Shown here: positions 25-57,646 of the stretch, piece by piece
How the letters are laid out: the number at the start of each line of letters is the position of its first letter
Position numbering within the stretch: the stretch's first letter is position 1
DNA from: SAR202 cluster bacterium
GTDB taxonomy: Bacteria > Chloroflexota > Dehalococcoidia > Lucifugimonadales > UBA826
Direction: 5' to 3'
NCBI GenBank assembly: GCA_009392815.1
Contig: VFFS01000058.1
Span: forward strand, 464-64,463
Length of the DNA stretch: 64,000 nucleotides
Position numbers and translations under genes: made by a program
The notes under the pieces: generated by a model
The model's input: the letters and a program-made list of their open reading frames with translations, nothing else
Told to the model about the DNA's origin: nothing
The model's database searches: none

Positions 25-630
25 TCACAAAACCACATTCTCGGCGCCAGACAGTGATTCTCTAATCTTTGTAGAGGTCTCAAAGTATTCTTGATCCGAC
101 AATACCGGCTGAGTCTCCAGGGTCGGAATATGGTCATCCAGTTCTACCCAAGATTTGCATCCCGAAAACGCTGGGGTTCGTGGCACAGTCATTTTCCCTT
201 CTAACTTGAATAATCTCAATAACGCTACGGTTAGTGCTTGAGATGGTCTCCAATGGAAGCGTGACTTTACATATTCTTCTGTCCAATGATGAAAAGAGGA
301 AATTTTTGATAGCGTTTCTGAATCTCTTAACTCATATACATCCGTGACTTTCGCCCAGTATTGAAATTCAATTTCGTTGGCATTAAAAGAGTCCTCTAGC
401 GGAGTTATCAAATCCTTTTGCACAGAAGGCTTTAATAGATCGAGCTTCTGATGTTCGTAGGTTGGAAACAATAAAAAGCTGGGATGTATGATCCTGAACT
501 CTTTATCGTCTTGGTGAATGCCGCCTTTCCGTACTATTATAATTTGGTCACCAAGAGCCATCGCTCTTATTGTCACCGCCCATTCTTTAAGCGCCACATT
601 GCAAGAAGTTGAAACGTTGACCATATCCAC
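25..630 (-). CDS. conserved hypothetical protein, DUF1802-like
   Basis: 201-aa ORF. The N-terminal pattern LKEWAV..IIVRKGGI..FLLFPTYEHQ matches my recollection of the DUF1802 family. No catalytic motif recognised. Confidence 0.5.
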   Translation of the reverse strand: MDMVNVSTSCNVALKEWAVTIRAMALGDQIIIVRKGGIHQDDKEFRIIHPSFLLFPTYEHQKLDLLKPSVQKDLITPLEDSFNANEIEFQYWAKVTDVYELRDSETLSKISSFHHWTEEYVKSRFHWRPSQALTVALLRLFKLEGKMTVPRTPAFSGCKSWVELDDHIPTLETQPVLSDQEYFETSTKIRESLSGAENVVL

Positions 631-717
631 ACTCCAAAAAAATCACAACCTAGTAGACTCTATTGAACATTCCTACACACTGATATCATACCAATAGATC
701 TTTAGGGAGTTATTTCT

Positions 718-2184
718 ATGTCCGAATCTGATCCGATTTCAAGTCAACACGATACATTAATTAAAGGCGGCCTAGTGGTCGATGGAGCACGTACACAAAA
801 GTTAGATGTTGCTATCAAAGCAGAAAAGATTTCTGCAGTGGAATCCCACCCTTCGGAATTGCGGGCAGCCAAAGAGATCGATGCCTCGGGATATTTCGTT
901 ATCCCAGGGATTATCGATGCACATAATCATCCTATCAATCTAGATAAGATGGATACATTTACGCTCAGTTCCGCATTCGGTGGAGTAACAACTGTAATCC
1001 CGTTCATGCAGAATATGAGAAGCAGAGGTATCGCAGGCACTACTTCTGAAACGATAGAACGTTTTATAGAGGAATCTTCGGATATCTCCTACCTTGACTT
1101 CGGGGTACATGCAATTCTCTTCGGCGACGATGACGTTACTACTGAAGTTCCGAAATTAATTGATATGGGTGTCATATCATTCAAGATGTACATGACATAT
1201 CCCAAACGGGGCATGATGATGCCAGATGAAAAAATGCTGGAAGCAATGTCGATCGCATCCGATATGGGTGGAATAGCAATGGTACACGCGGAAAATGGTT
1301 ACTGTATCGATTATCTGACAGAGGCTTTCATAGAATCAGGAAAGACAGGTAGAGAATATTATGCGAAATCACAGCCTCGTATCTTGGAGGTAGAAGCCGC
1401 CAACAGGGCTGCAACATATGCTAGCGTGACAAACTGCCCATTGTACGTTGTACATTTAAGTGCTAGAGAAGTCCTGAGTGTAATTGACCAGTACAAGATG
1501 AAAGGATTGGATATCTTTGGAGAGACCTGTCCTCAGTATCTGGATTTGACAAACCAAATGGTTCTGGAACATGGTGCTCTTGCTAAAATAGGGCCTCCTC
1601 TCAGAACTTCAGAAGACAATGAGGCAATGTGGTCAGGCCTAAAATCTGGTGTCATCGATACCGTCGCAAGTGATTTCTGTGGATTCAGTAAGTCACAAAA
1701 ATATTCTGGCGGGCGCAGCACAGGTTCTATTGAAGAGTCTGAAGATATCGATCCCAACGCAAGTATATTTGATGCCAGCTTCGGGGGTAACTGGACCGAA
1801 CAGATGCTCCCAGTTGTATACGAGGAAGGGGTAAATAGAGGCAGAATCACTGTGAACAAGCTGGTTCAAGTTATGTGTGAAAATCCGGCTAAAATATTCG
1901 GCATATACCCTCGAAAGGGAGTCATATCTGTAGGTTCTGATGCAGACATAGTATTATTCGACCCTGCGGCACAACACACTCTCTCCGCCGATGCCCAACA
2001 TTGCAATGCAGATTTCACTATGTTTGAGGGAAAGGAAATCTTGGGCAAACCAATTTTCTCTATGCAGCGCGGTAACGTGGTCATTGAAAATGGAAAGATC
2101 CATTCGAAGCAAGGGTCCGCTGTTTATCTCACAGGTGACGTGAATCTAACTGCATCCGCCCCAAACGGTCACAAAATAATTTGA
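718..2184 (+). CDS. cyclic amidohydrolase (D-hydantoinase / dihydropyrimidinase family)
   Basis: 488 aa. Metal-binding IIDAHNHP (HxH), SFKMYMTY (carbamylated-Lys region), VHAENG, YVVHLS and ASDF Asp are typical of hydantoinase/dihydropyrimidinase TIM-barrel amidohydrolases. Confidence 0.8.
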   Translation: MSESDPISSQHDTLIKGGLVVDGARTQKLDVAIKAEKISAVESHPSELRAAKEIDASGYFVIPGIIDAHNHPINLDKMDTFTLSSAFGGVTTVIPFMQNMRSRGIAGTTSETIERFIEESSDISYLDFGVHAILFGDDDVTTEVPKLIDMGVISFKMYMTYPKRGMMMPDEKMLEAMSIASDMGGIAMVHAENGYCIDYLTEAFIESGKTGREYYAKSQPRILEVEAANRAATYASVTNCPLYVVHLSAREVLSVIDQYKMKGLDIFGETCPQYLDLTNQMVLEHGALAKIGPPLRTSEDNEAMWSGLKSGVIDTVASDFCGFSKSQKYSGGRSTGSIEESEDIDPNASIFDASFGGNWTEQMLPVVYEEGVNRGRITVNKLVQVMCENPAKIFGIYPRKGVISVGSDADIVLFDPAAQHTLSADAQHCNADFTMFEGKEILGKPIFSMQRGNVVIENGKIHSKQGSAVYLTGDVNLTASAPNGHKII

Positions 2185-2200
2185 TTTCCGAGGTGTAGAA

Positions 2201-3262
2201 ATGTCTGTAAAGCACTCCCACGACGATATAAAGCTTACCAGCCTAGCTTCGTGTGCTGGTTGAGCGTCCAAACTAAGTCCTAAAGACCTGTCGCACGTGC
2301 TGCGACAGCTACCAGACATGTCACACCCTAACCTTCTGGTGGGGACATCTACAAATGACGATGCTGCAGTGTACAAGATTTCCAAGGATCTGGCTGCGGT
2401 CATGACTGTGGACTTCTTCCCACCTATCGTGGACGACCCGTACATATTCGGCGAAATCGCCGCAACAAATTCATTATCTGATATCTATGCAATGGGGGCC
2501 GAGCCCATTGTTGCCCTGAACATCGTAGGATTCCCTGCAGACTTGGATATCTCCATCTTGGCTGAAATCCTCAAGGGAGGGGCCGCCAAAGCACTAGAAG
2601 CCGGAATAGTCATTGCTGGAGGACATACAGTAGCTGACGAAGAGCCTAAATATGGATTATCAGTAACTGGTCTAGTGCGTCCAGGTGAGGAGGTGGGTAA
2701 TTCTAACTCTCAACCAGGTGACTATCTTGTTCTGACGAAACCCATCGGAACTGGGATAATTACTACTGCTGGAAAACAAGGAGTTGTGTCACAGAAAGTT
2801 ATTGATCAAGCAATATCTATTATGTCTGCCCTCAATAAAAATGCCTCAGAGGCTATGATTGAAGTAGGAGTTAATGCCTGTTCTGATATAACCGGATTCG
2901 GTTTGATTGGCCATTTAAAAGAAATGATTGAAGGATCCGGTACATCTGCTGAGATACAACTTTCATCCATTCCTGTCATAGAGGGAACCAGGAATTTACT
3001 TGCAAAGGGCATCGTGCCAGGAGGCACGTTAAGAAACCTAGATTCCGTAGAAGACAACGTGTTATGGAGTGAAGAAATTTCTGAAGATGACAAACTCCTA
3101 CTATGTGATGCTCAAACATCGGGAGGTCTCCTTATATCCGTTCCAGAACCAAAACTAGAAACTTTGTTAAAGAATCTTTCTGACAAAAATGTTGACTGTG
3201 GTGCGGTAGTAGGGAAAATAGTGGAAACGAATGAAAGAAATGTAATTGAGGTGAAAATGTAA
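2201..3262 (+). CDS. selD: selenide, water dikinase (selenophosphate synthetase), Sec-containing form; TGA at 2261-2263 read as selenocysteine
   Basis: The ORF track starts at GTG 2297, but the same frame is open from ATG 2201 apart from one TGA. The N-terminus MSVKHSHDDIKLTSLASCAGUASKLSPKDLSHVL aligns with the E. coli SelD loop [23 protein letters not shown], placing U at the Cys17 position with the Lys conserved. The rest carries SelD/AIR-synthase-like motifs (DDAAVY, TVDFF, GGHT, DITGFGL, CDAQTSGGLL). A GAGGTG SD lies 7 nt upstream of 2201. Confidence 0.85.
2288..2308 (+). promoter_or_regulatory. SECIS-like hairpin downstream of the selD UGA
   Basis: Perfect 8-bp stem CUGUCGCA / UGCGACAG with a 5-nt loop CGUGC (contains GU). 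It begins 24 nt after the UGA codon, within the spacing typical of bacterial SECIS elements. Confidence 0.55.
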
Positions 3263-3336: not shown

Positions 3337-5010
3337 TTGACTAGAGCGTCAGAAATAGTAAGCCGGGACCTGTTGAAGGCCTTTGATTCCGCCATAGAAA
3401 AAGGGGACCTCCCCAGAACAAATATATCGGACGCCGCAATAGAACGGCCTCAAAATACTGATCATGGGGACTTCGCTACCAGTCTACCGTTGAAATTAGC
3501 CAGCGATATGAAAATGAGCCCCATGGTCATCGCAGAAATATTATCCAGGCACTTACCTAAAGAAAGCATAATTTCGGAATCACAGGTCGCACCGCCAGGA
3601 TTTCTCAATTTAACACTGGACCCTAAGTGGCTATTTTCACAAATTCATCTAATTCGAAATGCAAAAACCGCGTATGGCAATCTGAACCTGTCCAAAAGAA
3701 AAAAGATTCAGATTGAATATGTGAGTGCAAATCCAACCGGACGTTTGCACGTAGCACACGCCAGAGGGGCTGTAATAGGAAGTGCATTAGCCAACCTATT
3801 AAAAGCCGCAGGACATACAGTAGAGGAAGAATATTATTTAAACGATGCTGGTAATCAAATAGAAAAATTTAATAAATCTTTGCTGGTTAGATATAAACAA
3901 ATAGCAGGACTCGATATAGAACTGCCGGAAGACTCATATCCAGGCGAAGACATATCTGATGTGGCAAAAACTATATGGGATGAAGAGGGTGACCGGTATC
4001 TACAGCTTGATGAAAGCGAAGCGGAAATATCAATAGGTTCAAAAGGCATCCCCAAAATGATAGAGGGGATAAAAGAGGACCTAGAGTCCTTAAGAGTGCA
4101 ATTTGACGAGTGGTTTAGCGAGACAAGCCTGTACACACAAGGGCAATTTGAAACCTGTATGAAGTCATTAAAGAATAAGGGGCTCACTACAGATAGAGAT
4201 GGTGCCAAGTGGCTAATTTCAACAAAACTTGGTGAAGAAAAAGACAACGTTCTGATTAGAACTTCTGGAACACCAACATATTTCGCATCAGATATTGCCT
4301 ATCATTTCAATAAATTCCACCAGCGAAATTTCGCTGAGGTAATCGACGTTTGGGGTGCAGATCATCAAGGGCAGATAGGGCGATTGCGCTCAGCTCTTGA
4401 TGCCTTGGAAATTGATTCAACAAAACTAAAGATCATACTCGTTCAGATGGTCCGGTTTAAAAAGGGTGAAACATCAGAAAAGCTATCTAAAAGAAAGGGT
4501 AACGTAATACCTCTAATAGACCTTGTAAATGAAATAGGCGTTGATGCATGTCGTTTTTTATTCCTTTCAAGATCGAATGAGAGCCAACTAGAATTTGACT
4601 TAGACCTAGCTAAACAACAATCGTCTGAGAATCCTGTTTACTACGTGCAATATGGGCACGCGAGGATTTGCAGCATACTTAGGTTAGCTGAAGAAAGAAA
4701 CATAGATTTCAGCAGCGGCGACGTATCTATTTTGAGAGATCCAACAGAGCTTTCCCTAATAAATAAAATGCTAGAACTGCCAGATGTTATTGAGACATCT
4801 GTTGGAAATTTAGAAGCGCACCACCTTCCCCACTACTCCATGGAGTTAGCAACGGCATTTCACACGTTTTATCAAAATTGCCGAGTAGTATCCTCGGAAA
4901 AATCCGATCTCCCCATATCAAAGGCGCGACTACTTCTTGTCGACGCTGCCAGATTGGTCCTCGGAAGATGCCTGAAATTAATGAATATGACCGCTCCTGA
5001 CAAAATGTAA
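3337..5010 (+). CDS. argS: arginine--tRNA ligase
   Basis: 557 aa, TTG start. Class I signature ANPTGRLHVAHARG, KMSK-like LSKRKG, and a C-terminal DALR-type anticodon-binding region (YYVQYGHARI). Confidence 0.95.
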   Translation: MTRASEIVSRDLLKAFDSAIEKGDLPRTNISDAAIERPQNTDHGDFATSLPLKLASDMKMSPMVIAEILSRHLPKESIISESQVAPPGFLNLTLDPKWLFSQIHLIRNAKTAYGNLNLSKRKKIQIEYVSANPTGRLHVAHARGAVIGSALANLLKAAGHTVEEEYYLNDAGNQIEKFNKSLLVRYKQIAGLDIELPEDSYPGEDISDVAKTIWDEEGDRYLQLDESEAEISIGSKGIPKMIEGIKEDLESLRVQFDEWFSETSLYTQGQFETCMKSLKNKGLTTDRDGAKWLISTKLGEEKDNVLIRTSGTPTYFASDIAYHFNKFHQRNFAEVIDVWGADHQGQIGRLRSALDALEIDSTKLKIILVQMVRFKKGETSEKLSKRKGNVIPLIDLVNEIGVDACRFLFLSRSNESQLEFDLDLAKQQSSENPVYYVQYGHARICSILRLAEERNIDFSSGDVSILRDPTELSLINKMLELPDVIETSVGNLEAHHLPHYSMELATAFHTFYQNCRVVSSEKSDLPISKARLLLVDAARLVLGRCLKLMNMTAPDKM

Positions 5011-6268: not shown

Positions 6269-7375
6269 ATGAAAATAGTAAATATCGAGACCACAGCCCT
6301 TTACTACCCGCACGGAAAATCAATACAAGATGCAACAATTCATCCTCCCGCTCAAGAGGAATCTGGAAGGGGCCAACTTTTCGTACATATTTATACTGAC
6401 GAAGGTATAGAAGGCCTAGGAATGACCTACCTCTCTCCAGGAACCAGAGATGTAATAGAAAGCGCACTTAAGAAGATCCTGATTGGTAAAAACCCTCTCG
6501 ACATAGAAAGATTATGGGACGAAATGTACTGGGAAGTCAGAGGATACGGTAGAAAAGGAATAGCATTTTGTGCAATCTCTGCGGTAGATATCGGACTCTG
6601 GGATCTCAAAGCAAAATCAGTAAATCTACCCTTGTACAAACTTCTCGGAGCTTATACGGAATCCGTACCAATTTATGGGAGTGGGGGATGGACAAATTTC
6701 TCCGAACAAGAGTTGTTAAAAGAAATGACAGACTACGTTGAATCAGGTATTCAAAAAATAAAAATGAAAGTGGGAAAAAACTTCGGACAATCTGAAAGGG
6801 AAGATATACAAAGGGTGGCGTCAGTTAGAAAAGCAGTAGGAGACAATGTAGCAATCTACATTGATGCCAATAACGGCTACTACCGCAAGCAAGCAATATA
6901 CATGGCTAAGGAATTTGAGCAATACCAAGTCGGTTGGTTTGAAGAACCTTTAATACCTGATGACATTGAAGGAATGTCAGAAATCGCCAAAGCGACCTCA
7001 ATTCCAATTGCCACAGGCGAGCACGAATACACAAAATACGGGTTTCGCGAATTAATAGAAAGAGGAGCTGCTGACATAGTGCAGCCAGATATAGGAAGGG
7101 TGGGTGGAGTCACGGAATGGCTAAAAGTAGCCCACCTAGCCCATGCATTTAATTTACCTGTAGCTCCACACGCCCTACAGCTTGCTCACCTTCATGTAGC
7201 CTGTTCTACACCCAACCTGAAAGTCGTTGAATATATGAATGTGTCCTTAGAAGGGGATGCCGTATGGTACACAGAATTCCCGAAGCAAGAAAATGGAGTA
7301 TGGGCTCCCTTTCATGACAAGCCAGGTCTCGGATTAGAACTGGACCACTACGCAGTTTCCAAGTATTCGATCTAA
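6269..7375 (+). CDS. enolase-superfamily enzyme (mandelate racemase/muconate lactonizing family)
   Basis: 368 aa. Motifs VDIGLWDLKAK, KMKVG, IYIDAN, WFEEP, TGEHEYT and VQPD. A paralogue of the preceding gene. Confidence 0.8.
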   Translation: MKIVNIETTALYYPHGKSIQDATIHPPAQEESGRGQLFVHIYTDEGIEGLGMTYLSPGTRDVIESALKKILIGKNPLDIERLWDEMYWEVRGYGRKGIAFCAISAVDIGLWDLKAKSVNLPLYKLLGAYTESVPIYGSGGWTNFSEQELLKEMTDYVESGIQKIKMKVGKNFGQSEREDIQRVASVRKAVGDNVAIYIDANNGYYRKQAIYMAKEFEQYQVGWFEEPLIPDDIEGMSEIAKATSIPIATGEHEYTKYGFRELIERGAADIVQPDIGRVGGVTEWLKVAHLAHAFNLPVAPHALQLAHLHVACSTPNLKVVEYMNVSLEGDAVWYTEFPKQENGVWAPFHDKPGLGLELDHYAVSKYSI

Positions 7376-8514
7376 GCAATCAATGCTGGGAGCTTTTTAA
7401 GCTCATTTATGTTCCTGGAAGAGGCAAACACGTCAACGAATGGAACCGAGGCTTCCAATGTCCGGGTCGCTTGTTCATAATCACCAGATCCTATAAGTGG
7501 ATTTAGCCAAACTAATTTTTTCACAGTCCTCTTTACAATTGCTAGCTTTCGACCTACATCCTCAGGATCCCCAGTATCCCAACCGTCGCTCACTAAAACA
7601 AAAGTAGTGTCCCTGTCTAGTGCAAAACTGAATTCTGTAGAAAGTTGCGTCAGACAGTCTCCTATTCGTGTACCTCCCGACCAGTGTGCCACGTGCCCAC
7701 TTATTTTATTAAGAGCCTCTGTCATAGTTTTAGATTTCATTTCCCTGGTCACTTCACTGACTTCGGTACTAAAAACGAACACTTTGACCTGGCTAGTTTT
7801 CCTGCACGTTTCATAAGCCAAATGAAGTAAATTACGAGAGTGCTTATCCATTGAACCGCTAACATCTAACATGAAAACTACATTAGGCAATCTGGGCTTA
7901 CGGGATTTTAGAGGTATCCTGTATGGCTCCCCCCCCGCCCTAAAACTTTCCCTAAGCAGACTCCTCAAGTCTATTTTTCGCCCGCGGCGACTGCTTCGGT
8001 ATCTCCGCCCCGGTTTATCGGCCATAGAGCGCACAAAATTGGAAGCTATTTTAGATATCTCTCCCGAGTTAGTTTCTGCCAAGTAAGTGACATCCCTATA
8101 TTCTTGAGAGCTTCTGGAACTAGCACCAACAATATTGGGTTGGAAAAGTACGTTGCCAGAGGAAGAATCATGTTCAGGAAGTATTGATTCAGTCTTTCGC
8201 CTACTAAATTTTTTCCCTCCGGTGAACAAGTCCGATTTATATTCCTGCACTTCGTTGCTATTAAAATATTCAAACGTCCAAAACCTTCTAAAGGCCTGAT
8301 CGAACATATCGATTTCAGGAAATCTGGTCACAAATAAACTTCTCAAACACCAATATACTGACGCGCGATTCATAATCCCTTGATTAATAAATACATTCAT
8401 AGCATCCGAAATCTCAGTAGGACCTATCATAAGACCATAGGTCCGCAAATTACGCACGAATCTGGTCAGATGCGTTTCAAAATCATAATCCGAAACGTTA
8501 TCTACATTAGGCAT
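7372..8514 (-). CDS. VWA domain protein, CoxE-like
   Basis: 380 aa. MIDAS-type MLDVSGSM, WSGGTRIG, VLVSDGWDTGDP and C-terminal WLNPL..Y.. match the VWA_CoxE family pattern. The start abuts the stop of the upstream hydrolase gene (8515). Confidence 0.7.
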   Translation of the reverse strand: MPNVDNVSDYDFETHLTRFVRNLRTYGLMIGPTEISDAMNVFINQGIMNRASVYWCLRSLFVTRFPEIDMFDQAFRRFWTFEYFNSNEVQEYKSDLFTGGKKFSRRKTESILPEHDSSSGNVLFQPNIVGASSRSSQEYRDVTYLAETNSGEISKIASNFVRSMADKPGRRYRSSRRGRKIDLRSLLRESFRAGGEPYRIPLKSRKPRLPNVVFMLDVSGSMDKHSRNLLHLAYETCRKTSQVKVFVFSTEVSEVTREMKSKTMTEALNKISGHVAHWSGGTRIGDCLTQLSTEFSFALDRDTTFVLVSDGWDTGDPEDVGRKLAIVKRTVKKLVWLNPLIGSGDYEQATRTLEASVPFVDVFASSRNINELKKLPALIA

Positions 8515-9897: not shown

Positions 9898-10803
9898 ATG
9901 GATAAAGAAAAACCTGAGACAAAAAATGATGCTCTGCAAAGGATAAATTCAGGAGAGACTTTGATATCCGATGGGGCAACAGGAACTTTCCTACAACAAA
10001 ACGGACTTGAACCAGGTGGAGACCCTGAAGAATTTAATGCCACTCGACCAGATGTTGTCAAAAAGATGGCAAGAGAATATTTTGAGTCGGGGTCAGACTT
10101 AGTCCTAACCAATTCTTTTGGTGGAACCAAATATCGACAGGGTCACTATGGCTTTGGAGACAGGGTGACTGAGTTCAATAAGCTAGCTGCTGAACATGCA
10201 AAGAGTCAAGCTGCCGATGACAAATTCGTATTTGGTTCTGTTGGCCCCACCGGAGAATTCCTACAACCACTAGGGACGGTCTCAGAGGATGAAATGTATG
10301 AAGCATTTAAGGTTCAGATAGTAGCTTTAGAAACTGGAGGAGCGGACGGCGTTGTAATTGAGACTATGACTGCTATGGAGGAAGCATCTTTAGCAATAAG
10401 AGCAGCCAAAGAAAACACCAGATTAACTGTCGCCGCCACAATGACTTTCGACAAAGGTCCTAGGGGCTATTTTACAATGATGGGAATAACACCTGAGCAA
10501 GCCGCAGTTGGTTTAGGCGAATCCGGGGCGGATATAGTAGGAACCAACTGTGGAAATGGGATCGACAACATGATAGAAATCGCTCAGCGCATGAGAGAAT
10601 CAACCGCCCTGCCGCTCCTTGTACATTCAAACGCCGGTATACCAGGAATGGAGAAAGGTGAAATACTCTACCCAGAATCTCCAGACTTTATGGCAGAGCG
10701 GTTCCTTCGACTGAAAGAAGTAGGGGTAAACATAATAGGCGGCTGCTGTGGAACCGGTCCTTCCCACATAAAAGCCCTCGCGAAAGTTTTGGGAAAGGGG
10801 TAA
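9898..10803 (+). CDS. homocysteine S-methyltransferase-domain protein (MetH N-terminal / BHMT / MmuM family, zinc-thiol methyltransferase)
   Basis: 301 aa. LISDGATGT at the N-terminus and Zn-ligand cysteines in GTNCGNG and GGCCGTGP, the Cys / Cys-Cys triad of the family. Confidence 0.8.
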   Translation: MDKEKPETKNDALQRINSGETLISDGATGTFLQQNGLEPGGDPEEFNATRPDVVKKMAREYFESGSDLVLTNSFGGTKYRQGHYGFGDRVTEFNKLAAEHAKSQAADDKFVFGSVGPTGEFLQPLGTVSEDEMYEAFKVQIVALETGGADGVVIETMTAMEEASLAIRAAKENTRLTVAATMTFDKGPRGYFTMMGITPEQAAVGLGESGADIVGTNCGNGIDNMIEIAQRMRESTALPLLVHSNAGIPGMEKGEILYPESPDFMAERFLRLKEVGVNIIGGCCGTGPSHIKALAKVLGKG

Positions 10804-10807
10804 CAAT

Positions 10808-11482
10808 ATGGCTTTAACCGATTTTGAAGGCTTGCGACCATCAGAAGTGATATCACGGTATGGGAGATGTATTGAACTAGTTCCTTTAGATAAACACTTT
10901 AACGACATTTCTGTCGGCCTTTATCTAAAAGAGTCTATATTTACAGTCTGGACTTTTAGTAACAAACCGAACACTTCAGACAGGATAAAAGCTATAAGAA
11001 ACCAACTTATTGCCATCGGAGGTATGTCAGAAGTCCCAGGCACTGACAACCAGGTTAGATTTGAATGTGGTTCACTACATGAACGACCGGTGAAGTTCTT
11101 GCTCAATCAATCCGTTGGTAAGGCTCCAGACTTTGCCCCCTCAAGTGGTGAACTAGTGATAAAAGACAGCAAATCAGATTTGATGATAAATGCAGCACCT
11201 TTTCTACGGGAAGGTAGCTGGTTTTACAGAATCACAACAACAGGAAAAGCAAAAAATCCATCTATGAGACTGAGAATGATATTGGCTGGATTTTCTCGTT
11301 ACGGTGAAATGGACAAAATAGGGGACGATGAAGTTGCATTTGAATGTAGAGACCAACATGACGGGCTGATGAGATTATTGATGCCATATTCTAGAAATAT
11401 TAGTAGCGTTGAAACAATGATGGCCGCCGAAGATATGAGAGGCCAAATGACAACAAGTACACTGGGATTCAGTCAAACGTAG
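10808..11482 (+). CDS. hypothetical protein, internally duplicated (two ~75-aa halves, each with an FEC-x3-H motif)
   Basis: 224 aa, starting 4 nt after the preceding stop. The halves align to each other (..VRFECGSLHERPVKFLL.. versus ..VAFECRDQHDGLMRLLM..). No family recognised. Confidence 0.6.
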   Translation: MALTDFEGLRPSEVISRYGRCIELVPLDKHFNDISVGLYLKESIFTVWTFSNKPNTSDRIKAIRNQLIAIGGMSEVPGTDNQVRFECGSLHERPVKFLLNQSVGKAPDFAPSSGELVIKDSKSDLMINAAPFLREGSWFYRITTTGKAKNPSMRLRMILAGFSRYGEMDKIGDDEVAFECRDQHDGLMRLLMPYSRNISSVETMMAAEDMRGQMTTSTLGFSQT

Positions 11483-11497
11483 GGAGGCTTAAACACC

Positions 11498-12541
11498 ATG
11501 ACTACTAGCAAAAATGAAACTATGACTCCAAAGCAGCGGGTTATGAATGCTCTAGCAGGCAACCCAGTAGACAGAACCCCTGTGGCAAACCCCACGAATG
11601 TAGCGACAGTGGAACTAATGGACTTAGTAGATGCTCCCTTCCCAGAAGCATGTCAAAATCCTGAACTGGCTGCCAGATTAGCCGCGACGGGATACACAGA
11701 ATTAGGTTTCGATAGTATTTCCCCCTATTTCAGCATAATTCAAGAGTCCTCTGCCTTAGGCTGTGAAATGCAATGGGAAGAAAAAGACAACTGGCCTACC
11801 GTACGAATGTATAACCCTGTTTGGAAAGATGCTGACGACATACATATTCCCAGCAATTTTCTAGAACACAGGGACGTGAAGGCCATAACAGAGTCCATAA
11901 AAATACTAAAACAGGAATACGGAGATGAAGTAGCCATTATTGGAAAAACAATGGGACCATGGACTCTTGCTTACCATGTTTTTGGAGTAGAGAGATTCCT
12001 CCTCGGTACTGTGGATAATCCAGACGAAACAATGAGAGCACTTGAAAAACTCACTGAAATCTCCGTACTTTTTGGGGAAGCCCAAATTGATGCGGGAGCA
12101 GACGTTTTAACGTTCCCTGACCATGCTACCGGTGACCTAGTAAGCGGAGAGTACTATAAGAGATTTTTGCAGGATATTCATACTGACATGGTTGAAGCGT
12201 TGCCCGTACCGTTAATCCTTCACATATGCGGCAGAACAGTGGACCGGATGCCTTATATTTCTCAAACAGGCATGGCCTCGTTTCATTTCGATTCTAAAAA
12301 CGACCCGCAAGAAGCTATGGATGCTGTCAATGGAGAGATTGGGTTAGTAGGCAATATAAACAATCCGGAAACACTTTACGCTCGAGGGTCTGAAGAAGTC
12401 AGGCAAGAGGTATATAAGTGCCTCGAGGCGGGGGTACAAATGATAGCGCCAGAATGCGCGGTGCCTCTGGCAACAAAAATACAAAATCTTATGGAAATCC
12501 CTCTTGCAGTTAAAGATTGGACAGCTGAACGAAATAGTTAA
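11498..12541 (+). CDS. MtaA/MtbA/CmuA-type methyltransferase (UroD-fold, zinc-dependent methylcobamide methyltransferase family)
   Basis: 347 aa. The N-terminus VMNALAGNPVDRTPVANPTNVATVELMDLVDAPFPEACQNPELAARLA aligns closely with Methanosarcina MtaA (LLAALKGEPVDKVPV...VELMDVVGAPWPEAHTNPELMAKLA). It has the Zn motif LHICG plus a later APECA Cys, and lacks the HemE RQAGR motif. Confidence 0.8.
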   Translation: MTTSKNETMTPKQRVMNALAGNPVDRTPVANPTNVATVELMDLVDAPFPEACQNPELAARLAATGYTELGFDSISPYFSIIQESSALGCEMQWEEKDNWPTVRMYNPVWKDADDIHIPSNFLEHRDVKAITESIKILKQEYGDEVAIIGKTMGPWTLAYHVFGVERFLLGTVDNPDETMRALEKLTEISVLFGEAQIDAGADVLTFPDHATGDLVSGEYYKRFLQDIHTDMVEALPVPLILHICGRTVDRMPYISQTGMASFHFDSKNDPQEAMDAVNGEIGLVGNINNPETLYARGSEEVRQEVYKCLEAGVQMIAPECAVPLATKIQNLMEIPLAVKDWTAERNS

Positions 12542-12654
12542 TAGTTCAACTCTCCTTTACTGGCCTTATAATTATAATTTGCATCTTTATTACAAAACTT
12601 GACCAAACACAAATAGAAGAATTGTTTAAAAATACAATCTCATAAGGAATACAA

Positions 12655-13407
12655 ATGCCGGTTGTTAATGAGGATCTTGAAAAAGAATTAACATACGTGA
12701 CTAATCCCTCAGAGGAGTCTCATATCCGATCGCTCTGGGATAATGCTGATCCACTAATGCAGAAAATTTCCGTGAACCTTATACACGGAAATAACAACGA
12801 AGTATACGAGTTGACCAAGGAAGCGTTAGATAAAGGATTCAGCGCGAACACCGTGCTAGATGATGGTCTGATCGCAGGAATGGCTATAGTAGGAGTCAAA
12901 TTCAGAGACAACATAATCTTTGTACCTGAAGTACTTGTTGCTGCCAGGGCCATGAAAGCTGGAATGGAGCATGTTGAGCCTATTCTTTCCGCTTCCGGAG
13001 TAGAACCTATGGGTACTATAATCATGGGAACTGTCAAAGGCGATCTCCATGATATCGGTAAAAACCTTTGCATAATGATGCTTAGAGGAGCAGGATTTAC
13101 AGTCGTTGACCTCGGAGTTGATACCTCTGCAGATGAATTTATTGAGGCCTTAGAAGAAAATGATGCAAGTGTTCTAGGAATGTCGGCTCTGTTAACTACG
13201 ACCATGCCTAATATGGGAAGAACCATCGAAGCCATAGAGGAAGTGGAAATGAGAGACTTGGTCAAAGTAATGGTTGGAGGGGCCCCGCTTTCACAGGAGT
13301 TCGCAGATGACATGGGAGCGGACGGTTACGGAAAAGACGCTATAGAATGCGTTGATTTAGCAAAATCATTTCTGGGCCTTGGGCAAGAAACTGGCGTCGC
13401 TTCCTAA
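12655..13407 (+). CDS. cobalamin-binding corrinoid protein (MtaC/MtmC/MetH-B12-domain type)
   Basis: 250 aa. N-terminal helical cap domain, the base-off/His-on motif GDLHDIGKN (DxHxxG), then SALLTT and a GG..L Rossmann-like B12-binding domain. Confidence 0.85.
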   Translation: MPVVNEDLEKELTYVTNPSEESHIRSLWDNADPLMQKISVNLIHGNNNEVYELTKEALDKGFSANTVLDDGLIAGMAIVGVKFRDNIIFVPEVLVAARAMKAGMEHVEPILSASGVEPMGTIIMGTVKGDLHDIGKNLCIMMLRGAGFTVVDLGVDTSADEFIEALEENDASVLGMSALLTTTMPNMGRTIEAIEEVEMRDLVKVMVGGAPLSQEFADDMGADGYGKDAIECVDLAKSFLGLGQETGVAS

Positions 13408-13425
13408 ACAAAAAGGACTCATAAA

Positions 13426-13704
13426 GTGCCAGACAATATCGGCGATAACGAGCCACAGTTTGACAAGGAAAAATATGCTGCCAGCCTAACAAGACTGGAC
13501 AGCATATTTAGAAATATATCTAAATCCGTTACCGAAATCTCCAAGTCTCGCTGCCCCTACAAAAATGTGCAGGACAGATGCACAGCAAAATTTGGCTGCA
13601 GAAACCAAAATATAAAGGTTCCGCCTGGAGAGATGTATATTTGCGTGGGTAGTGATGATTTAGATTATCGTGATGCTTGGGAGTCTGAAACACCGATAGT
13701 TTGA
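13426..13704 (+). CDS. small Cys-rich hypothetical protein
   Basis: 92 aa, GTG start 18 nt after the corrinoid protein stop. Cys pattern C-x8-C-x5-C-x14-C (SRCPYKNVQDRCTAKFGCRN...YICVG). No family recognised. Confidence 0.45.
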   Translation: MPDNIGDNEPQFDKEKYAASLTRLDSIFRNISKSVTEISKSRCPYKNVQDRCTAKFGCRNQNIKVPPGEMYICVGSDDLDYRDAWESETPIV

Positions 13705-13837
13705 GTTATATCACCTCTAATCAAACTAACAATGTGTACCGTGGTTGTTCGCCATTCTATAAGCAGGTTCCTCGACTTTTCCCTTCATCAATCTGTATTC
13801 TCAATTTATTATTGATTTCATTTGTTAGGATTGAGTC

Positions 13838-15469
13838 ATGTCTCCAGTAATAGCTGATGGCCGAAAGGTCCAATATAAAGAGAAAAATACTTTATTTGAT
13901 TACGCGGACTCCCTTGATGTCCGGGTACCCACCTCATGCGGACGAACAGGAGAATGTCACGAATGCATAGTTGAGATCAAAAAAGGTATGAACTCATTAA
14001 ATCCCATTACCAAGCATGAGGAGTTTCTTAGGGGTAACTATAGACTTGCCTGTAGAACTAGGTTGGAGGACCCACACGCAACAGTGGAATTTGCCACACT
14101 TAGAAGACAGCCACGCATTTTGTCTGAAAGCATAAATAGAAAAGTCCCACTAGATACCAGGGTAATCAAAGAGAACGATAATGTTGTTTTGGACGGGAAA
14201 ATCATCGATAGATACAGAGGAGGTATCTATGGAATAGCTGGAGACATAGGTACTACAACAGTCGTTTTAAACTTGGTTGACTTGGAATCAGGTGAAATAA
14301 TTCAAACCTCCTCATTTGAAAATCCCCAGAGATTTGGGGGAGGCGACGTTATGAACCGTATCTCTTATGATGGAGGAGCGTTTCATGGAGAATTAAAGCA
14401 AGTAATGCTCTCATCTATCAATTTCGAAATTGGTGCGATGACTCGAAATCCTAATTGGAAATCCCTTCATAGACGATGCATTTATGACGTAGTACTGGTA
14501 GGAAACACAACAATGAGGGACCTGCTATATGGGATAGACGTCCAACCTGTCGGCCAAAAACCTTATAAATCATTAATTCAAACGGAATTTGAAAACAAGG
14601 AGCGTGATTCCACAGCAATAGAATGCTCAGCTGCCGACATCGGTTTAAGAGTACACCCCAAAGCGAATGTATACAGTGGACCGCTAGTAGGATCGCATGT
14701 TGGAACTGATGTAGCAGCCGATATGTTGGCTATTGGAATGGATAAAGCAAAATCTCCAAGAATGCTCGTAGACATTGGCACAAATACTGAGGTCGTTATC
14801 GGAGATAATTCCGGGATGGTAACTGCCTCCTGCCCTGCTGGCCCCGCTTTTGAAGGTGGGGAGGTAACCTACGGTATGCCCGGATACGATGGAGCAGTGG
14901 AAGCAGTTACCATTCATGAAGGGAAGGTAAGTATCTCCACTATCGGCGATGTGGAAGTAGAAGGTATCTGTGGCTCCGGGCTAGTAGATCTCCTTTCTGA
15001 ATTACGTAGAACGGAAACTATGGACGAACTTGGAAAATATTCAAATGATTCCAATCAATTCGCCTTCGCTGCTGACCGAGAAATGTACCTTTATAGATCC
15101 GACATAAGTGCTTTAGCCCAGGCTAAATCTGCGAATTATTCAGGACAGTTCATAGCCATGAGGCATTTCGGAAAATCAATAGAAGACTTAGAAGCTCTAT
15201 ATCTTGCGGGGGGATTTGCAAACTATATAAATGCTGATAACGCGAAAGCGATTGGATTCATAGCAGACTTCCCCACAGAAAAGATATCCAAAGTGGGGAA
15301 TGCCTCACTGGAAGGAGCAACCATTATGCTCAAATCCGTCTCCTCAAGACGGTCCATAGAAAAACTGGTAAGAAAAGTTGAACACATAGAATTGGAAACA
15401 ACACCTGACTTTTTTGATATTTTTGTCGAAGGATGTTTGTTCAAACCCATGCCACAAGAAATTTTTTGA
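13838..15469 (+). CDS. corrinoid reductive activase (RACo-like: N-terminal [2Fe-2S] ferredoxin domain plus ASKHA ATPase domain)
   Basis: 543 aa. Plant-type ferredoxin Cys motif SCGRTGECHECIV...LACRT, then ASKHA-type phosphate loops GIAGDIGTTT and LVDIGTNTE and a later GICGSG. Confidence 0.8.
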   Translation: MSPVIADGRKVQYKEKNTLFDYADSLDVRVPTSCGRTGECHECIVEIKKGMNSLNPITKHEEFLRGNYRLACRTRLEDPHATVEFATLRRQPRILSESINRKVPLDTRVIKENDNVVLDGKIIDRYRGGIYGIAGDIGTTTVVLNLVDLESGEIIQTSSFENPQRFGGGDVMNRISYDGGAFHGELKQVMLSSINFEIGAMTRNPNWKSLHRRCIYDVVLVGNTTMRDLLYGIDVQPVGQKPYKSLIQTEFENKERDSTAIECSAADIGLRVHPKANVYSGPLVGSHVGTDVAADMLAIGMDKAKSPRMLVDIGTNTEVVIGDNSGMVTASCPAGPAFEGGEVTYGMPGYDGAVEAVTIHEGKVSISTIGDVEVEGICGSGLVDLLSELRRTETMDELGKYSNDSNQFAFAADREMYLYRSDISALAQAKSANYSGQFIAMRHFGKSIEDLEALYLAGGFANYINADNAKAIGFIADFPTEKISKVGNASLEGATIMLKSVSSRRSIEKLVRKVEHIELETTPDFFDIFVEGCLFKPMPQEIF

Positions 15470-16540: not shown

Positions 16541-17030
16541 TCAAAGTGAAGTTGTGAATAGCACAACAGAATTATATTGGCTGGTAAATCTGTTTTTTAC
16601 GAACTCTACAATTGTGTCTAAAGCTATAGTACTGGCCTGAACAAAGGGATATCCATACGCTCCTGTACTGATACTGGGGAAAGCTATGCTCTTAATAGCA
16701 TGGTCTTTTGCCAAGTTAAGAGAGTTTCTATAGCAGGATTGAAGTAGCTGAGCTTCTCCGTCATTGCCTCCCATCCACACAGGTCCCACCGTGTGAATTA
16801 TCATGTTGGCCCTCAGTTTATACCCTTTGGTATGCCTCGCTTCGCCAACCGAACAACCACCAAGTGATTTACATTCATACAATAGCTCTGGACCAGCTTC
16901 GCGATGTATTGCGCCATCGACACTTCCCTCCGAGGAGGGAAGTGTTAGCCGCGTTTACTATGGCATAGACTTCTAACTCTGTGATATTTCCGAGGGTAAC
17001 TTGAACTCGTTTACTAATCGACTGATTCAT
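16541..17030 (-). pseudogene. macro-domain protein (YmdB/O-acetyl-ADP-ribose deacetylase-like) disrupted by a frameshift, or a sequencing error
   Basis: From ATG 17030, frame 1 encodes MNQSISKRVQVTLGNITELEVYAIVNAANTSLLGG and then stops. The next frame continues (G)SVDGAIHREAGPELLYECKSLGG...HTVGPVW...FPSISTGAYGYP, the tracked ORF 16541-16882. The total length of 490 nt is not a multiple of three. The shift maps to about 16923-16931. Confidence 0.75.
16920..16945. repeat. perfect 11-bp inverted repeat (ACACTTCCCTC cgag GAGGGAAGTGT) at the macro-domain frameshift site
   Basis: Read directly from the sequence. The arms are 16920-16930 and 16935-16945, with a 4-nt spacer. Confidence 0.9.
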
Positions 17031-31364: not shown

Positions 31365-31961
31365 TTAGTCGGCATAAAGAGATAGTGCCTTCTGATAGTC
31401 TTCATAAGTATTGAGGTCAAGATGTATCCGTGAGTCCGAGAATTGCACTTCGTTCACAACATTCCTGTACTCATTAAATATTTTTCGTAACCCTCCATCC
31501 ACCTCATCTAAAGAGAGAATCTCTTTCCTTAATTGAGAAGAAAAAATAACCGGGTGTCCGCCCTTATTCTCAAATCTTGGAGAGGTTATAAGAGCTCCTG
31601 TTTCTATATGACTTTCTACTAATTTTGCTATTACGTCATGGGTCCTAGGCTGATCAACACCGAGCAGAACATAGCAATCAGCCTCTTGCGACGCAGATTG
31701 AACGCCACACTTGATTGAAGAAACCCTACCTGTCTTATAGTCGACATTTTTGGTCAGGGTTACATTTTGCCCAGAAAGCTCGCCACAAACATCATTGGAT
31801 CTATGACCAAGAACAACCACAATCTCAGAACATCCGCCCTTACGCAGTGAATTTATCTGGTGTCTTATCAGAGAAATGCCATTCCACGGTAGAAGAGCCT
31901 TCATTTGACCCATCCTGCTCGAATATCCAGCGGCAGTTAATATAGCTGCTATATTTGGCAC
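31365..31961 (-). CDS. mocA: molybdenum cofactor cytidylyltransferase (MocA-type nucleotidyltransferase)
   Basis: 198 aa. N-terminal AAILTAAGYSSRMG..KALL, and located directly downstream of xdhC. Confidence 0.7.
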   Translation of the reverse strand: MPNIAAILTAAGYSSRMGQMKALLPWNGISLIRHQINSLRKGGCSEIVVVLGHRSNDVCGELSGQNVTLTKNVDYKTGRVSSIKCGVQSASQEADCYVLLGVDQPRTHDVIAKLVESHIETGALITSPRFENKGGHPVIFSSQLRKEILSLDEVDGGLRKIFNEYRNVVNEVQFSDSRIHLDLNTYEDYQKALSLYAD

Positions 31962-31967
31962 TTTTAA

Positions 31968-33122
31968 CTACAGATTAATTGGTTGACCGAAAGGTTTTTC
32001 AGGTGTGGCTGCTACTTTCTTTTCAATCCTCTCAAGTTGAGAATCATCTAATTTCATTGGTGATCCAGTGCCACCAAGTCTGAACATTAATATTTCTGAC
32101 ATTATGCTTATGGCTATTTCTTCGGGTGTTCTTGCTCTAATATCGAGTCCGATGGGTGAGCGAATCTCTTTGATCCTGTCCTTAGTCAATTCGCTTCGCA
32201 TTAAATCTTCATAAATTAGTATGGTCTTTCTCTTACTACCCATTAACCCTACATATTTGGCAGAAGTTTTAGCTGCGGCAAGGAGAGCTGTATTGTCATA
32301 TCTATGTCCCCTCGTTGCCACAACAATAAATGTATTCGGATTTATAGGAAGAGTAGGTAATGCATCTTCAGGTTTGTCATTTACAACAATGTCCGCCTCA
32401 GGGAATCTATTTTGGTTTGCAAATTCCTCCCTATCGTCCGTTATAAACAATCTGAATTCCAAAGGTTTGGCCAGTGAAGCTAGGGCTCTAGACACATGTC
32501 CACCGCCACAAATCACAAGCTGAGGAGGAGTCGTGTAGGCCTCAATGAAATATTCGGCTCCAGTAGCCGTGATCACATATTCATTACGCCCATGCACCAT
32601 CAATTCAAAAGCCTTGTCAATTGCCGCTACATCAATATCTTTGCTTCCCAGGGATCCTTCAGTATCTCCATTTTCGCGAATGAATAATTTGTCCCCAATG
32701 ACTGAAATACCATCATCTCCTGACTTAATAACAGTTGCTACTGCTACTGCCCCTTTCCCGTTATAAGCATCTGAAATTTCCTCTGCGTAGGGAAGGTAGT
32801 CTTCGGGACTGTAAACTGGATCGATTAGAAAATACATAGTCCCCCCGCATACGAGTCCATCCTCGGCAGCGAGTTCTTCATTGAGTTCGTATTCCTTGTA
32901 CTCTGCTGACCCCCCATCTTGCATAAGTTGCTTTGCAGCAAACCATATATCTCCTTCGACGCATCCTCCCCCCAGAGTCCCTACTCCAGACCCATCCTGT
33001 CTCACTAAAAGCTTTGCCCCGGGCTTTTGTGGTGTTGATCCTTTCGTCCTGATTACAGTAGCCAAGACTACAGGTTCACCGTTACCAAGCTTATCTACAG
33101 CGTCTTCAAATACCTCTTTCAT
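31968..33122 (-). CDS. xdhC: XdhC/CoxI-family molybdenum hydroxylase maturation protein
   Basis: 384 aa. N-terminal XdhC_CoxI pattern (VLATVIRTKGSTPQKPGAKLLV..DG...GTLGGGCVE) and a C-terminal Rossmann-like XdhC_C (VICGGGHVS). Confidence 0.8.
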   Translation of the reverse strand: MKEVFEDAVDKLGNGEPVVLATVIRTKGSTPQKPGAKLLVRQDGSGVGTLGGGCVEGDIWFAAKQLMQDGGSAEYKEYELNEELAAEDGLVCGGTMYFLIDPVYSPEDYLPYAEEISDAYNGKGAVAVATVIKSGDDGISVIGDKLFIRENGDTEGSLGSKDIDVAAIDKAFELMVHGRNEYVITATGAEYFIEAYTTPPQLVICGGGHVSRALASLAKPLEFRLFITDDREEFANQNRFPEADIVVNDKPEDALPTLPINPNTFIVVATRGHRYDNTALLAAAKTSAKYVGLMGSKRKTILIYEDLMRSELTKDRIKEIRSPIGLDIRARTPEEIAISIMSEILMFRLGGTGSPMKLDDSQLERIEKKVAATPEKPFGQPINL

Positions 33123-38436: not shown

Positions 38437-39315
38437 TTGAAGTGGATAGATTTTGAGAAACCAAAGACCGTAGAAGATGCTGTCAAGCTTCTTTCAGATT
38501 CTGGTGGAAATGCCAGACCAATGGCAGGTGGAACCGACCTAATAGTTCAATTAAGGGTGGGAGACCCACGGGTCAATGCTGACGTTGTCGTAGACATAAA
38601 AAGCATTCCTGAGCTTAATGAACTCAGTTACAGCAGTAGCAAGGGTTTGACTATTGGAGCAGCAGTGGAATGTTACAAGATATATGGCGATGCCAATGTA
38701 AACAGCCATTTTTCAGCTCTAAATGACTCTGCCACACTTATAGGTGGAACTCAGATTCAAGGTCGTGCATCATTCGGTGGAAATCTCTGCAACGCCGCTC
38801 CCAGTGGAGACTCGATCCCGAATATGATTGCGCACGGTGCGGTTGCCACAATCGCTGGTCCATCTGGCACAAGAGAGGTACCCGTAGAGGATATTTGCAC
38901 GGGTCCTAGACAAACACTAATTGGAGACGACGAATTACTGGTATCAATTAACTTCCCCAGCAATGGAAGTGGATTTGGTGCTAACTACATTCGATTCATC
39001 CCAAGAAACGAGATGGATATTGCTGTCGCAGGCGTAGGAGCATCGGTAACGATTGAGGACGGCAAATTTACGTCGGCGAAAGTTAGCCTCGCTTCTGTTG
39101 CACCTACACCGCTCTTGGTAAAAGAAGCAGGAGAGTCTCTTGTTGGAGAAACAGTCAGCGAGGAAGCAATCCAAAATGCTGCAAATCTTGCAAAAGCTGC
39201 AGCTAAACCAATATCGGATATGAGAGGCACTGCGGACTACCGTAAACATCTCTGCGATGTACTAACAAGACGTGCCCTTAACACAGCAGTAGAGAGAGCA
39301 CAGGGAGCAAGCTAA
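38437..39315 (+). CDS. molybdenum hydroxylase FAD-binding (medium) subunit
   Basis: 292 aa, TTG start with AAGGAGG upstream. AGGTDL FAD_binding_5 pattern and a C-terminal CO-dehydrogenase-flavoprotein-like domain (DMRGTADYR). Confidence 0.85.
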   Translation: MKWIDFEKPKTVEDAVKLLSDSGGNARPMAGGTDLIVQLRVGDPRVNADVVVDIKSIPELNELSYSSSKGLTIGAAVECYKIYGDANVNSHFSALNDSATLIGGTQIQGRASFGGNLCNAAPSGDSIPNMIAHGAVATIAGPSGTREVPVEDICTGPRQTLIGDDELLVSINFPSNGSGFGANYIRFIPRNEMDIAVAGVGASVTIEDGKFTSAKVSLASVAPTPLLVKEAGESLVGETVSEEAIQNAANLAKAAAKPISDMRGTADYRKHLCDVLTRRALNTAVERAQGAS

Positions 39316-39795
39316 ATGCCAGCAAAAACTTACGTACAAACAACTATAAATGGGGAACACGTTGATTTCCTGTGTGAACCTAGACAAAGTCTACTTGAAT
39401 GCTTGAGGGACGAAATAGGACTCACAGGCACAAAGGAAGGCTGTAACGACGGGAACTGTGGCGCTTGTACAGTTAACATAGACGGCCGTATAGTTACTTC
39501 ATGTCTAGTACTCGGTGTGGAAGCTGAAGGCGCCGATATAGAGACAATTGAAGGGGTAGCCGACGGCAGCAATCTTCATCCGCTTCAGCTCGCGTTTCTA
39601 GAAAATGCTGCCCTACAATGCGGGATCTGTACACCAGGCTTCATCATTTCATCCAAAGCCCTACTAGAACAGAATCCAAACCCGAGCGAACATGAAATAA
39701 GATTCTGGCTAGCAAACAATCTATGCCGATGCACAGGCTACGACAAAATTGTTAGAGCAGTCCAAGACGCCGCAAAAAGACTACAGGAGGCCTAG
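39316..39795 (+). CDS. molybdenum hydroxylase [2Fe-2S] (small) subunit
   Basis: 159 aa. Motifs CNDGNCGACTV, then CGICTPG and CRCTGY. Confidence 0.9.
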   Translation: MPAKTYVQTTINGEHVDFLCEPRQSLLECLRDEIGLTGTKEGCNDGNCGACTVNIDGRIVTSCLVLGVEAEGADIETIEGVADGSNLHPLQLAFLENAALQCGICTPGFIISSKALLEQNPNPSEHEIRFWLANNLCRCTGYDKIVRAVQDAAKRLQEA

Positions 39796-39801
39796 GTAAT
39801 T

Positions 39802-42070: not shown

Positions 42071-42334
42071 ATGGCACTGGTTTTCATCCCTTCACTGATG
42101 CAGAATCTCTCCAATGGAGAGCAGAGAGTGTCAGTGGAGGGTGCTAACGTGAGACAGATCATAGACAATCTGGATTCAATGTTCCCAGGGTTTAAAAATC
42201 GATTAGTGGAAGACGGAAGAGTCAAACCCAATATATCTGTCGCAATCGACGGTGAAATAACCCCTCTCGGAATGATCGAAAAAGTTACAGAAGATAGTGA
42301 AGTTCACTTCCTACCCGCGATCTCAGGAGGATGA
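42071..42334 (+). CDS. MoaD/ThiS-family ubiquitin-like small protein ending in Gly-Gly
   Basis: 87 aa. The C-terminus ...HFLPAISGG is directly followed by the stop. It is a paralogue of 53471-53749. Its stop overlaps the next start (ATGA). Confidence 0.75.
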   Translation: MALVFIPSLMQNLSNGEQRVSVEGANVRQIIDNLDSMFPGFKNRLVEDGRVKPNISVAIDGEITPLGMIEKVTEDSEVHFLPAISGG

Positions 42335-53167: not shown

Positions 53168-53178
53168 GATATATCCAA

Positions 53179-53421: not shown

Positions 53422-53470
53422 TTTTACCCCCTCCCCGTAATATGCATAACTTAATAGAGAGGATAAGAAA

Positions 53471-53749: not shown

Positions 53750-53777
53750 CAGTAAATTCACCTCCACAGTCATCTCT

Positions 53778-54932: not shown

Positions 54933-54943
54933 AATTTACGTAG

Positions 54944-57516: not shown

Positions 57517-57646
57517 GTTGGAAAGCTTACAAATTACGGCACAATACGTATGGAATCTAAGTGAAAAACTACTAACCAGTCTACAACAAACGATTCATAA
57601 TGGTGTCATTGAAAAAGCACATAAACAATTCACCAAGGATATACCG

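Follow-up and report, generated by a model that had tools for sequence, protein, structure and literature searches.

Haemophilus influenzae and Aquifex aeolicus are examples of organisms whose selenide, water dikinase (SelD) contains selenocysteine (Sec), and we take the PDB entries 2zod and 2yye to be the A. aeolicus SelD. SelD is the second most widespread selenoprotein family of prokaryotes, with Sec in the N-terminal selenium-binding loop (PMC13188914), and it is among the top selenoproteins of ocean metagenomes (PMC2398784). In Escherichia coli SelD, Cys17 in the N-terminal Gly-rich region binds selenide, and the C17S protein is catalytically inactive (PMC3956282). Genes of this SelD type are often misannotated (PMC13326102). 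In this study, we analyzed a 64-kb stretch of contig VFFS01000058.1 from a SAR202 cluster bacterium (the window), in which a selD gene is interrupted by an in-frame TGA. Judging from the sequence comparisons described below, positions 2201-3262 very probably encode a full-length SelD of 353 residues, the catalytic residue 21 of which is Sec specified by the UGA at 2261-2263. Sec-type SelD, the Sec insertion sequence (SECIS) and misannotation of such genes are already documented (PMC13188914, PMC13326102, PMC2398784); the finding is an annotation fix and changes no concept.

The window gene resembles the Sec-SelD genes of bacteria and archaea in family, domain order and length. The predicted Sec likewise lies in an N-terminal Gly-rich loop three residues before a Lys, and the UGA is followed by an in-frame hairpin. 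Residues 10-349 align with 2yye (E = 1e-68). There is no difference in kind from these systems; the window copy has the minority CxxU motif and a SAR202 origin. The CxxU motif occurs in about 5.6% of single-domain Sec-SelDs of marine metagenomes (PMC2398784) and is kept in the SAR202/Dehalococcoidia relatives of the window gene. Compared with E. coli SelD (PDB 3u0o), G-[C/U]-x-x-K is in register and the AIRS and AIRS_C domains are arranged likewise. However, E. coli has Cys at the catalytic position whereas the window gene has UGA. Because of this Cys, E. coli selD needs neither UGA recoding nor a SECIS. The prototype of the bacterial SECIS (bSECIS) is that of E. coli fdhF, and the window hairpin is also located inside the coding sequence just past the UGA.

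Membership in the SelD family was assessed by profile scoring with U21 written as C. The 353-residue protein scored 388.1 bits against TIGR00476 (equivalog cut-off, 125 bits) and 359.2 bits against NF002098 (equivalog cut-off, 299 bits). The TIGR00476 match runs from profile position 1 at residue 11, and this position is reached only when the N-terminal extension is included. In the NF002098 match, residues 7-351 correspond to profile positions 3-346. Precomputed Pfam assignments place the AIRS (PF00586) and AIRS_C (PF02769) pair in P0001, a 314-residue database protein that is 99% identical to the window SelD, and in all listed homologues. The best match among solved structures is E. coli SelD (3u0o, E = 1e-75), over query residues 6-341 (336 residues). 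In this alignment, which includes the segment from SHDD to PKDL, U21 lies opposite Cys17 and K24 opposite Lys20, so that U21 and K24 are the equivalents of these two residues. Cys occupies the position of U21 in the PDB homologues.

The selD frame is open upstream as far as an in-frame TAA at 2177-2179, and the ATG at 2201 is the first start codon after this TAA. From this ATG onward the TGA is the sole break in the frame, and the N-terminal translation reads MSVKHSHDDIKLTSLASCAG, then the TGA, then ASKLSPKDLSHVL and onward. The original prediction, made by a model from the sequence alone, had started from the open reading frame (ORF) tracked from GTG 2297 and had traced the same frame back through a single TGA to ATG 2201, 16 nt after the stop of the preceding hydantoinase-like amidohydrolase gene (ORF 718-2184). 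The ORF list and the in-frame TAA bear out this description and the translation given with it. The GAGGTG Shine-Dalgarno (SD)-like motif named in the same prediction is also present ahead of the ATG; its spacing is 5 nt, not 7 nt. No SD-like motif was found in the 15 nt before the in-frame starts that follow the TGA (GTG 2297, ATG 2318, GTG 2339 and GTG 2369). The catalytic N-terminus is lost in ORF calls because the UGA is treated as a stop and the frame is restarted at GTG 2297 or ATG 2318. Gene calls in three near-identical loci (L001-L003) start at the position of ATG 2318, and the DNA upstream of it is identical to that of the window. A protein beginning at Val33 or Met40 would be without the Sec/Lys active-site loop.

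Protein homologues were taken as the best 120 matches in a collection of 5.8 billion proteins. All 120 are N-terminally truncated calls of 256-326 residues with at most 92% query coverage. In every sampled case for which the upstream DNA was fetched, this DNA contains the identical TGA and a conserved SelD N-terminus. Copies with 98-99% identity are present in marine metagenome assemblies (L001-L003 and L041-L044). Among named genomes, the closest are that of a SAR202 cluster single cell (L007, 82% identity) and a metagenome-assembled genome (MAG) of an uncultured Chloroflexi (L006, 81%), followed by Dehalococcoidia MAGs at 58% identity. Among the loci whose DNA was fetched, to which our codon counts apply, codon 21 is TGA in 27 distinct sequences and TGC or TGT in 8. 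The TGA-type gene is carried by SAR202, other Dehalococcoidia, Zixibacteria, Nitrospinota, Clostridia, Coprothermobacter and others.

The codons on both sides of the TGA evolve as parts of a protein-coding gene. When the window was compared with relatives of 58-82% protein identity, the differences in the 14 codons 5' of the TGA were mostly synonymous, with a ratio of nonsynonymous to synonymous substitution rates (dN/dS) of 0.08-0.25. Five synonymous codon differences and one non-synonymous difference separate the window from L004 in these codons (dN/dS 0.08), and the values against L005, L071, L074 and L008 were 0.11-0.25, with dS close to saturation or past it. In L077 and L078, a serine codon has switched from TCG to AGC. 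The 18 codons 3' of the TGA, between the TGA and the called start, have a like pattern (dN/dS 0-0.30). These substitution patterns indicate that one continuous coding frame runs across the TGA under purifying selection on both sides. They rule out both a leader peptide with an independent start and a pseudogene.

A hairpin follows the TGA. According to the bSECIS model, the element has an apical loop of 3-9 nt and an upper stem of 4-16 bp (PMC13188914, Fig. 2A), a G at loop position 1 or 2 that usually precedes another G or a U, a UGA-to-loop spacing of 16-37 nt and a minimum free energy of -7.5 kcal/mol or lower (PMC13188914). In the window, the arms CTGTCGCA (2288-2295) and TGCGACAG (2301-2308) are fully complementary around CGTGC, and the stem begins 24 nt past the TGA, exactly as originally predicted. 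All four requirements of the model agree with what was found: a 5-nt loop on an 8-bp stem, G at loop position 2 followed by U, a spacing of 32 nt, and -11.2 kcal/mol for the isolated hairpin. Perfect hairpins of at least 8 bp in the SECIS distance range follow 4 of the 2439 TGA triplets on both strands of the window, and these four sites include the selD site and its own reverse complement.

The relatives support this helix by covariation. Alignment A1 covers the 27 TGA-type sequences over 63 nt from the TGA and needs no gaps. In the helix columns 28-36/40-48, 79.8% of cells are paired. Both sides have changed at 7 of the 9 pairs, with 38 compensatory cells and a covariation score of 0.446. 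None of 500 column shuffles matched the observed pairing, the compensatory-cell count or the covariation score, and pairing fell to 30-50% when the 3' arm was slid by 1-3 columns. For example, pair 31/45 is U-A in the window, A-U in L071, G-U in L074 and G-C in L077, and pair 33/43 switches between G-C and U-A among close relatives. The changes that keep the helix alter residues (S-H..R versus A-Q..S or T-Q..S). RNAalifold, with no structure supplied, returned the identical helix with compensatory changes at 6 of 8 pairs. In the matching columns of the eight Cys-type genes, 34.7% of cells are paired and no cell is compensatory. On this comparison of aligned sequences, the covarying helix is specific to UGA-type selD.

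Several observations weigh against a Sec-encoding UGA. The fold of 2261-2320 is ordinary (-13.6 kcal/mol, z = -1.24), and 25 of 200 shuffles were as good. Since this z is not unusual, a single-sequence fold proves nothing alone, either way. The hairpin has no Rfam match, either in the window at the gathering threshold or in 2150-2450 at E <= 10. Bacterial SECIS elements resemble one another little (PMC13188914), and a match is therefore not expected, so that the Rfam miss is no argument against a bSECIS. The loop-closing position 2296/2300 is C-C in the window, whereas most relatives have a G-C or A-U ninth pair there, which closes a GUN triloop. L004 and L007 carry C-U at this position. Because C-C or C-U is unpaired, the loop is 5 nt in the window and in these two relatives. 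Finally, no tRNA-Sec, selA or selB gene was found in the DNA covered for sel genes, that is, the window, 7.7 kb upstream on L001 and 10 kb downstream on L079-L081. ARAGORN found no tRNA gene whatever in the window, and SelA, SelB, YqeB and YqeC are absent among the 52 window ORFs of at least 150 residues scanned with Pfam and NCBIfam. The flanks on the near-identical contigs contain housekeeping genes upstream (L001) and a pyrimidine operon downstream (L079-L081).

Four indirect lines of evidence support Sec decoding by the host: the use of TGA as a normal stop, the sel genes next to selD in other phyla, a second TGA-interrupted gene, and related MAGs. Among the 52 window genes, TAA is the stop in 27, TAG in 15 and TGA in 10, including the gene directly 5' of selD; the genetic code is therefore not reassigned. 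In other phyla, tRNA-Sec adjoins TGA-type selD in L010, L012 and L021, and selA and/or selB adjoin it in L010, L012, L015, L020, L022, L024 and others. Marine Dehalococcoidia MAGs with 46-49 selenoprotein genes were reported in a database paper of 2026 (PMC13326102).

The second gene encodes an OsmC-like protein and lies about 7.3 kb past the 3' end of the window (L080:18167-18676, plus strand; also in L079 and L081). The contigs that carry it are 99.7-99.9% identical to window 52949-64000, the last 11 kb, and were taken to be of the same population. The gene appears as two small ORFs of 71 and 87 residues in the same frame and was left unannotated by gene callers. When the ORFs are joined over the TGA (L080 18380-18382), a protein of 169 residues results, with Pfam OsmC at 54-155. 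In three solved OsmC-like proteins, the residue opposite its U72 is the conserved catalytic Cys. Past the TGA comes UUGAAGCG-GUA-CGCUUCAA, whose 8-bp stem, with the loop GUA, starts 20 nt after the UGA. Homologues of 63-69% identity keep both the TGA and the hairpin, and the database rendered their TGA as W (P0121, P0122). The DNA behind this W has TGA and no Trp codon, and under table 11 the entries fail to translate. The OsmC-like gene is thus a predicted second selenoprotein gene of this population and bears out the original expectation that other TGA-interrupted genes had been mis-called.

No credible candidates for further TGA-interrupted genes emerged when the window was scanned. The candidate at 49552 was rejected as junk sequence 5' of a dehydrogenase gene. 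The TGA at 42332 is the true stop of a ThiS/MoaD-like protein that ends in Gly-Gly, and the TGA at 16541 is the stop of a macro-domain gene. On L001, two same-frame ORFs within 470-976 on the minus strand mimic a split selenoprotein but were rejected as one; they run antisense to CofD, a gene cut by a gap in the scaffold. In L001:470-1139, this CofD gene is interrupted by an N run with duplicated sequence on each side, which is a scaffolding artefact. It is because of this break that the two minus-strand ORFs (470-700 and 722-976) were called.

We propose the following course of selD expression. Translation would start at ATG 2201 behind the GAGGTG ribosome-binding site. The hairpin would recruit SelB-GTP-Sec-tRNA(Sec) as the ribosome meets the UGA, and Sec would be inserted in place of termination. 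The resulting N-terminal loop (...SCAGUASK...) would bear the selenide-binding Sec at the position of Cys17 and the essential Lys at that of Lys20. We infer SelB binding, actual Sec insertion and the presence of selA, selB and selC elsewhere in the genome. That selD is itself a selenoprotein had been proposed in the original prediction, and the proposal is supported by the Cys/Sec alignment, the conservation of the TGA, dN/dS and the TGA-specific hairpin. Its placement of U at the Cys17 position with a Lys three residues on agrees with the 3u0o alignment and with the TGA or TGC/TGT found at this codon in homologues. Codon-level conservation of 2201-2296, on which it depended, is present in close relatives, and the orthologues do not truly start at the downstream GTG or Met, as the DNA upstream of the fetched truncated calls holds the TGA and the extension. 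The proposed check by folding and SECIS prediction had a divided outcome: the bSECIS dimensions and the covariation stood, and the significance of the single-sequence fold did not.

Could the UGA be decoded as an amino acid other than Sec? A tRNA-Sec-like tRNA(Cys) acting with SelB might insert Cys there, or the codon might stand for Trp or Gly in a reassigned code. Some bacteria have tRNA-Sec-like tRNAs that insert Cys at UGA, and the W in P0121 and P0122 would speak for Trp. However, this W has TGA behind it in the DNA, and the TGA that ends 10 of the 52 window genes, including the immediate upstream one, disagrees with a reassigned code. Moreover, the selenium donor is synthesized by the product of selD itself, the hairpin conforms to the bSECIS model, which is specific to Sec, and marine Dehalococcoidia are documented Sec users (PMC13326102). 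We consider decoding as a residue other than Sec very unlikely.

If the TGA were a true stop, a 20-codon upstream ORF would end there and functional SelD would be made from GTG 2297 or ATG 2318. Both the mechanical ORF list and every public gene call handle the TGA in this way, and none of the Sec machinery was seen in the window and its flanks. But the truncated SelD would lack the loop with Sec/Cys17 and Lys20, and Cys17 serves as the selenide site in catalysis. Without the extension, the SelD models do not align from their first position. Purifying selection has kept the 20 upstream codons as SelD sequence, in one frame with the rest of the gene, and neither 2297 nor 2318 is preceded by an SD-like motif. 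A genuine stop is hardly credible on this evidence. That the gene is a pseudogene, or that its TGA is a sequencing or assembly error for TGC or TGT, from which it differs by one base in a window with at least one probable frameshift elsewhere (the macro-domain gene, 16920-16931), is effectively refuted. Within the same population, at least 7 independent assemblies (L001-L003, L041-L044) carry the identical TGA, and a further 26 distinct homologues, with protein identities as low as 45%, have TGA as well. Purifying selection is strong on both sides of the TGA, and the covarying helix follows it in TGA-type genes only.

With Sec as the probable residue 21, the correct length of SelD in this abundant population of marine SAR202 would be 353 residues, not 314-321, and the lineage would be marked as a selenocysteine user. 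Because such a lineage uses selenocysteine, gene calls based on stop codons in SAR202 genomes are expected to split or truncate other selenoproteins, as happened to the OsmC-like gene beyond the window's end. This is a small addition to the picture of selenium dependence in deep-ocean Chloroflexota; a literature search for SAR202 together with selenocysteine or selenoprotein gave nothing specific. The window selD is the only selD seen in the DNA examined. If it is the sole selenophosphate synthetase, selenium use in this SAR202 lineage might be autocatalytic, the UGA and the SECIS might act as a selenium-sensing translational switch, and Cys18 and Sec21 might form a hypothetical protective selenenylsulfide. 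We regard this possibility as rather doubtful. If it were true, full-length SelD would be made only when its own product is available. Autoregulation along these lines was suggested for Sec-SelD decades ago.

Table 1. Positions of selD, its predicted recoding signals and the adjacent genes in the window.
Feature	Position	Strand	Remarks
Dihydropyrimidinase/hydantoinase-like amidohydrolase gene	718-2184	+	TIGR02033 377.7 bits, just below 393; Pfam Amidohydro_1
GAGGTG, SD-like motif	2190-2195	+	5 nt ahead of ATG 2201; read directly
Full-length selD (selenide, water dikinase), predicted	2201-3262	+	353 codons including Sec21, then TAA stop
CxxU active-site motif C18-A19-G20-U21	2252-2263	+	N-terminal Gly-rich loop; from translation
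Predicted Sec-UGA, codon 21	2261-2263	+	Aligned with E. coli SelD Cys17; TGA kept in homologues
Lys24 codon	2270-2272	+	Equivalent to E. coli SelD Lys20; invariant AAR, A1 columns 10-12
Putative bSECIS hairpin	2288-2308	+	Stem 2288-2295/2301-2308; loop CGUGC 2296-2300
Mechanical ORF	2297-3262	+	321 residues, GTG start
GTG (Val33)	2297-2299	+	Start in the mechanical track; judged false, sits within the SECIS loop
ATG (Met40)	2318-2320	+	Start chosen by public gene callers; 314-residue products, e.g. P0001; judged false
Antisense ORF	2146-2445	-	99 residues; overlaps the site; mechanical listing
argS (arginyl-tRNA synthetase)	3337-5010	+	Pfam; downstream neighbour of selD

The features of the locus are listed in Table 1. 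The antisense ORF was judged spurious; the substitutions in relatives follow the plus-strand frame, with synonymous third-position changes. The amidohydrolase gene and selD are co-directional, and no promoter-like or terminator-like site was found between them. From this arrangement, the two genes are probably co-transcribed. The order selD-argS is conserved across SAR202 relatives (L001-L005, L071-L078). DUF1802 and hydantoinase-like genes (window 25-2184) precede selD only in the window and its closest relatives (L001-L004), and an aldo-keto reductase gene is directly 5' of selD in L005, L071 and L074. Because the DUF1802/hydantoinase pair is confined to the closest relatives, it looks like a lineage-specific insertion and not a selenium-linked operon.

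An orphan SelD occurs in the selenium-dependent molybdenum hydroxylase trait (PMC2276186), and the window resembles this trait in that selD adjoins a hydantoinase-like gene and that a CoxMSL-like cluster with XdhC and MocA-like genes is present. It differs in that the window has no selenium-dependent equivalog above its cut-off and no YqeB or YqeC among ORFs of at least 150 residues. We therefore found no support for a link between selD, the hydantoinase and a selenium-dependent molybdenum hydroxylase. Since a Sec-containing SelD needs the Sec trait, the window SelD would not be an orphan SelD.

The molybdenum hydroxylase set of the window lies at 31365-33122 (minus strand), 38437-42057 (plus strand) and 7372-8514 (minus strand). 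It consists of flavin adenine dinucleotide-, 2Fe-2S- and Mo-binding subunits, an XdhC-family maturation factor, a MocA-like cytidylyltransferase and a CoxE-like VWA protein. No subunit in this set attains any NCBIfam equivalog cut-off or shows a sign of selenium dependence, and the matches to TIGR03311, TIGR03312 and TIGR03313 are far under their cut-offs. A ThiS/MoaD-family ORF of 87 residues (42071-42334, plus strand) directly follows the large-subunit gene (39802-42057); it ends in Gly-Gly, and its TGA stop overlaps the next start (ATGA). At this length it falls below the 150-residue limit of the ORF list.

Downstream of selD-argS, a corrinoid-dependent methyl-transfer cluster is located at 9898-15469 on the plus strand. 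It encodes an S-methyltransferase (PF02574), a 224-residue protein without family match, a URO-D/MtaA-like protein, a B12-binding corrinoid protein and a RACo-type reductive activator. Its position is kept in the SAR202 relatives L072 and L074, at about 68% identity.

The macro-domain gene at 16541-17030 (minus strand) has an apparent frameshift near 16920-16931. One frame encodes the first 35 residues (MNQS...SLLGG), and a different frame encodes the remainder, from SVDGAIHREAG onward. The repaired protein of 163 residues matches Pfam Macro over the junction with 149 bits. The frameshift may reflect a real pseudogene or an assembly error. In the NUDIX gene at 62215-62670, about 250 nt of the window (62400-62650) correspond to about 100 nt of L079 (9601-9702), in which there is no NUDIX call. 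This difference in length may be a population-level indel or an assembly difference.

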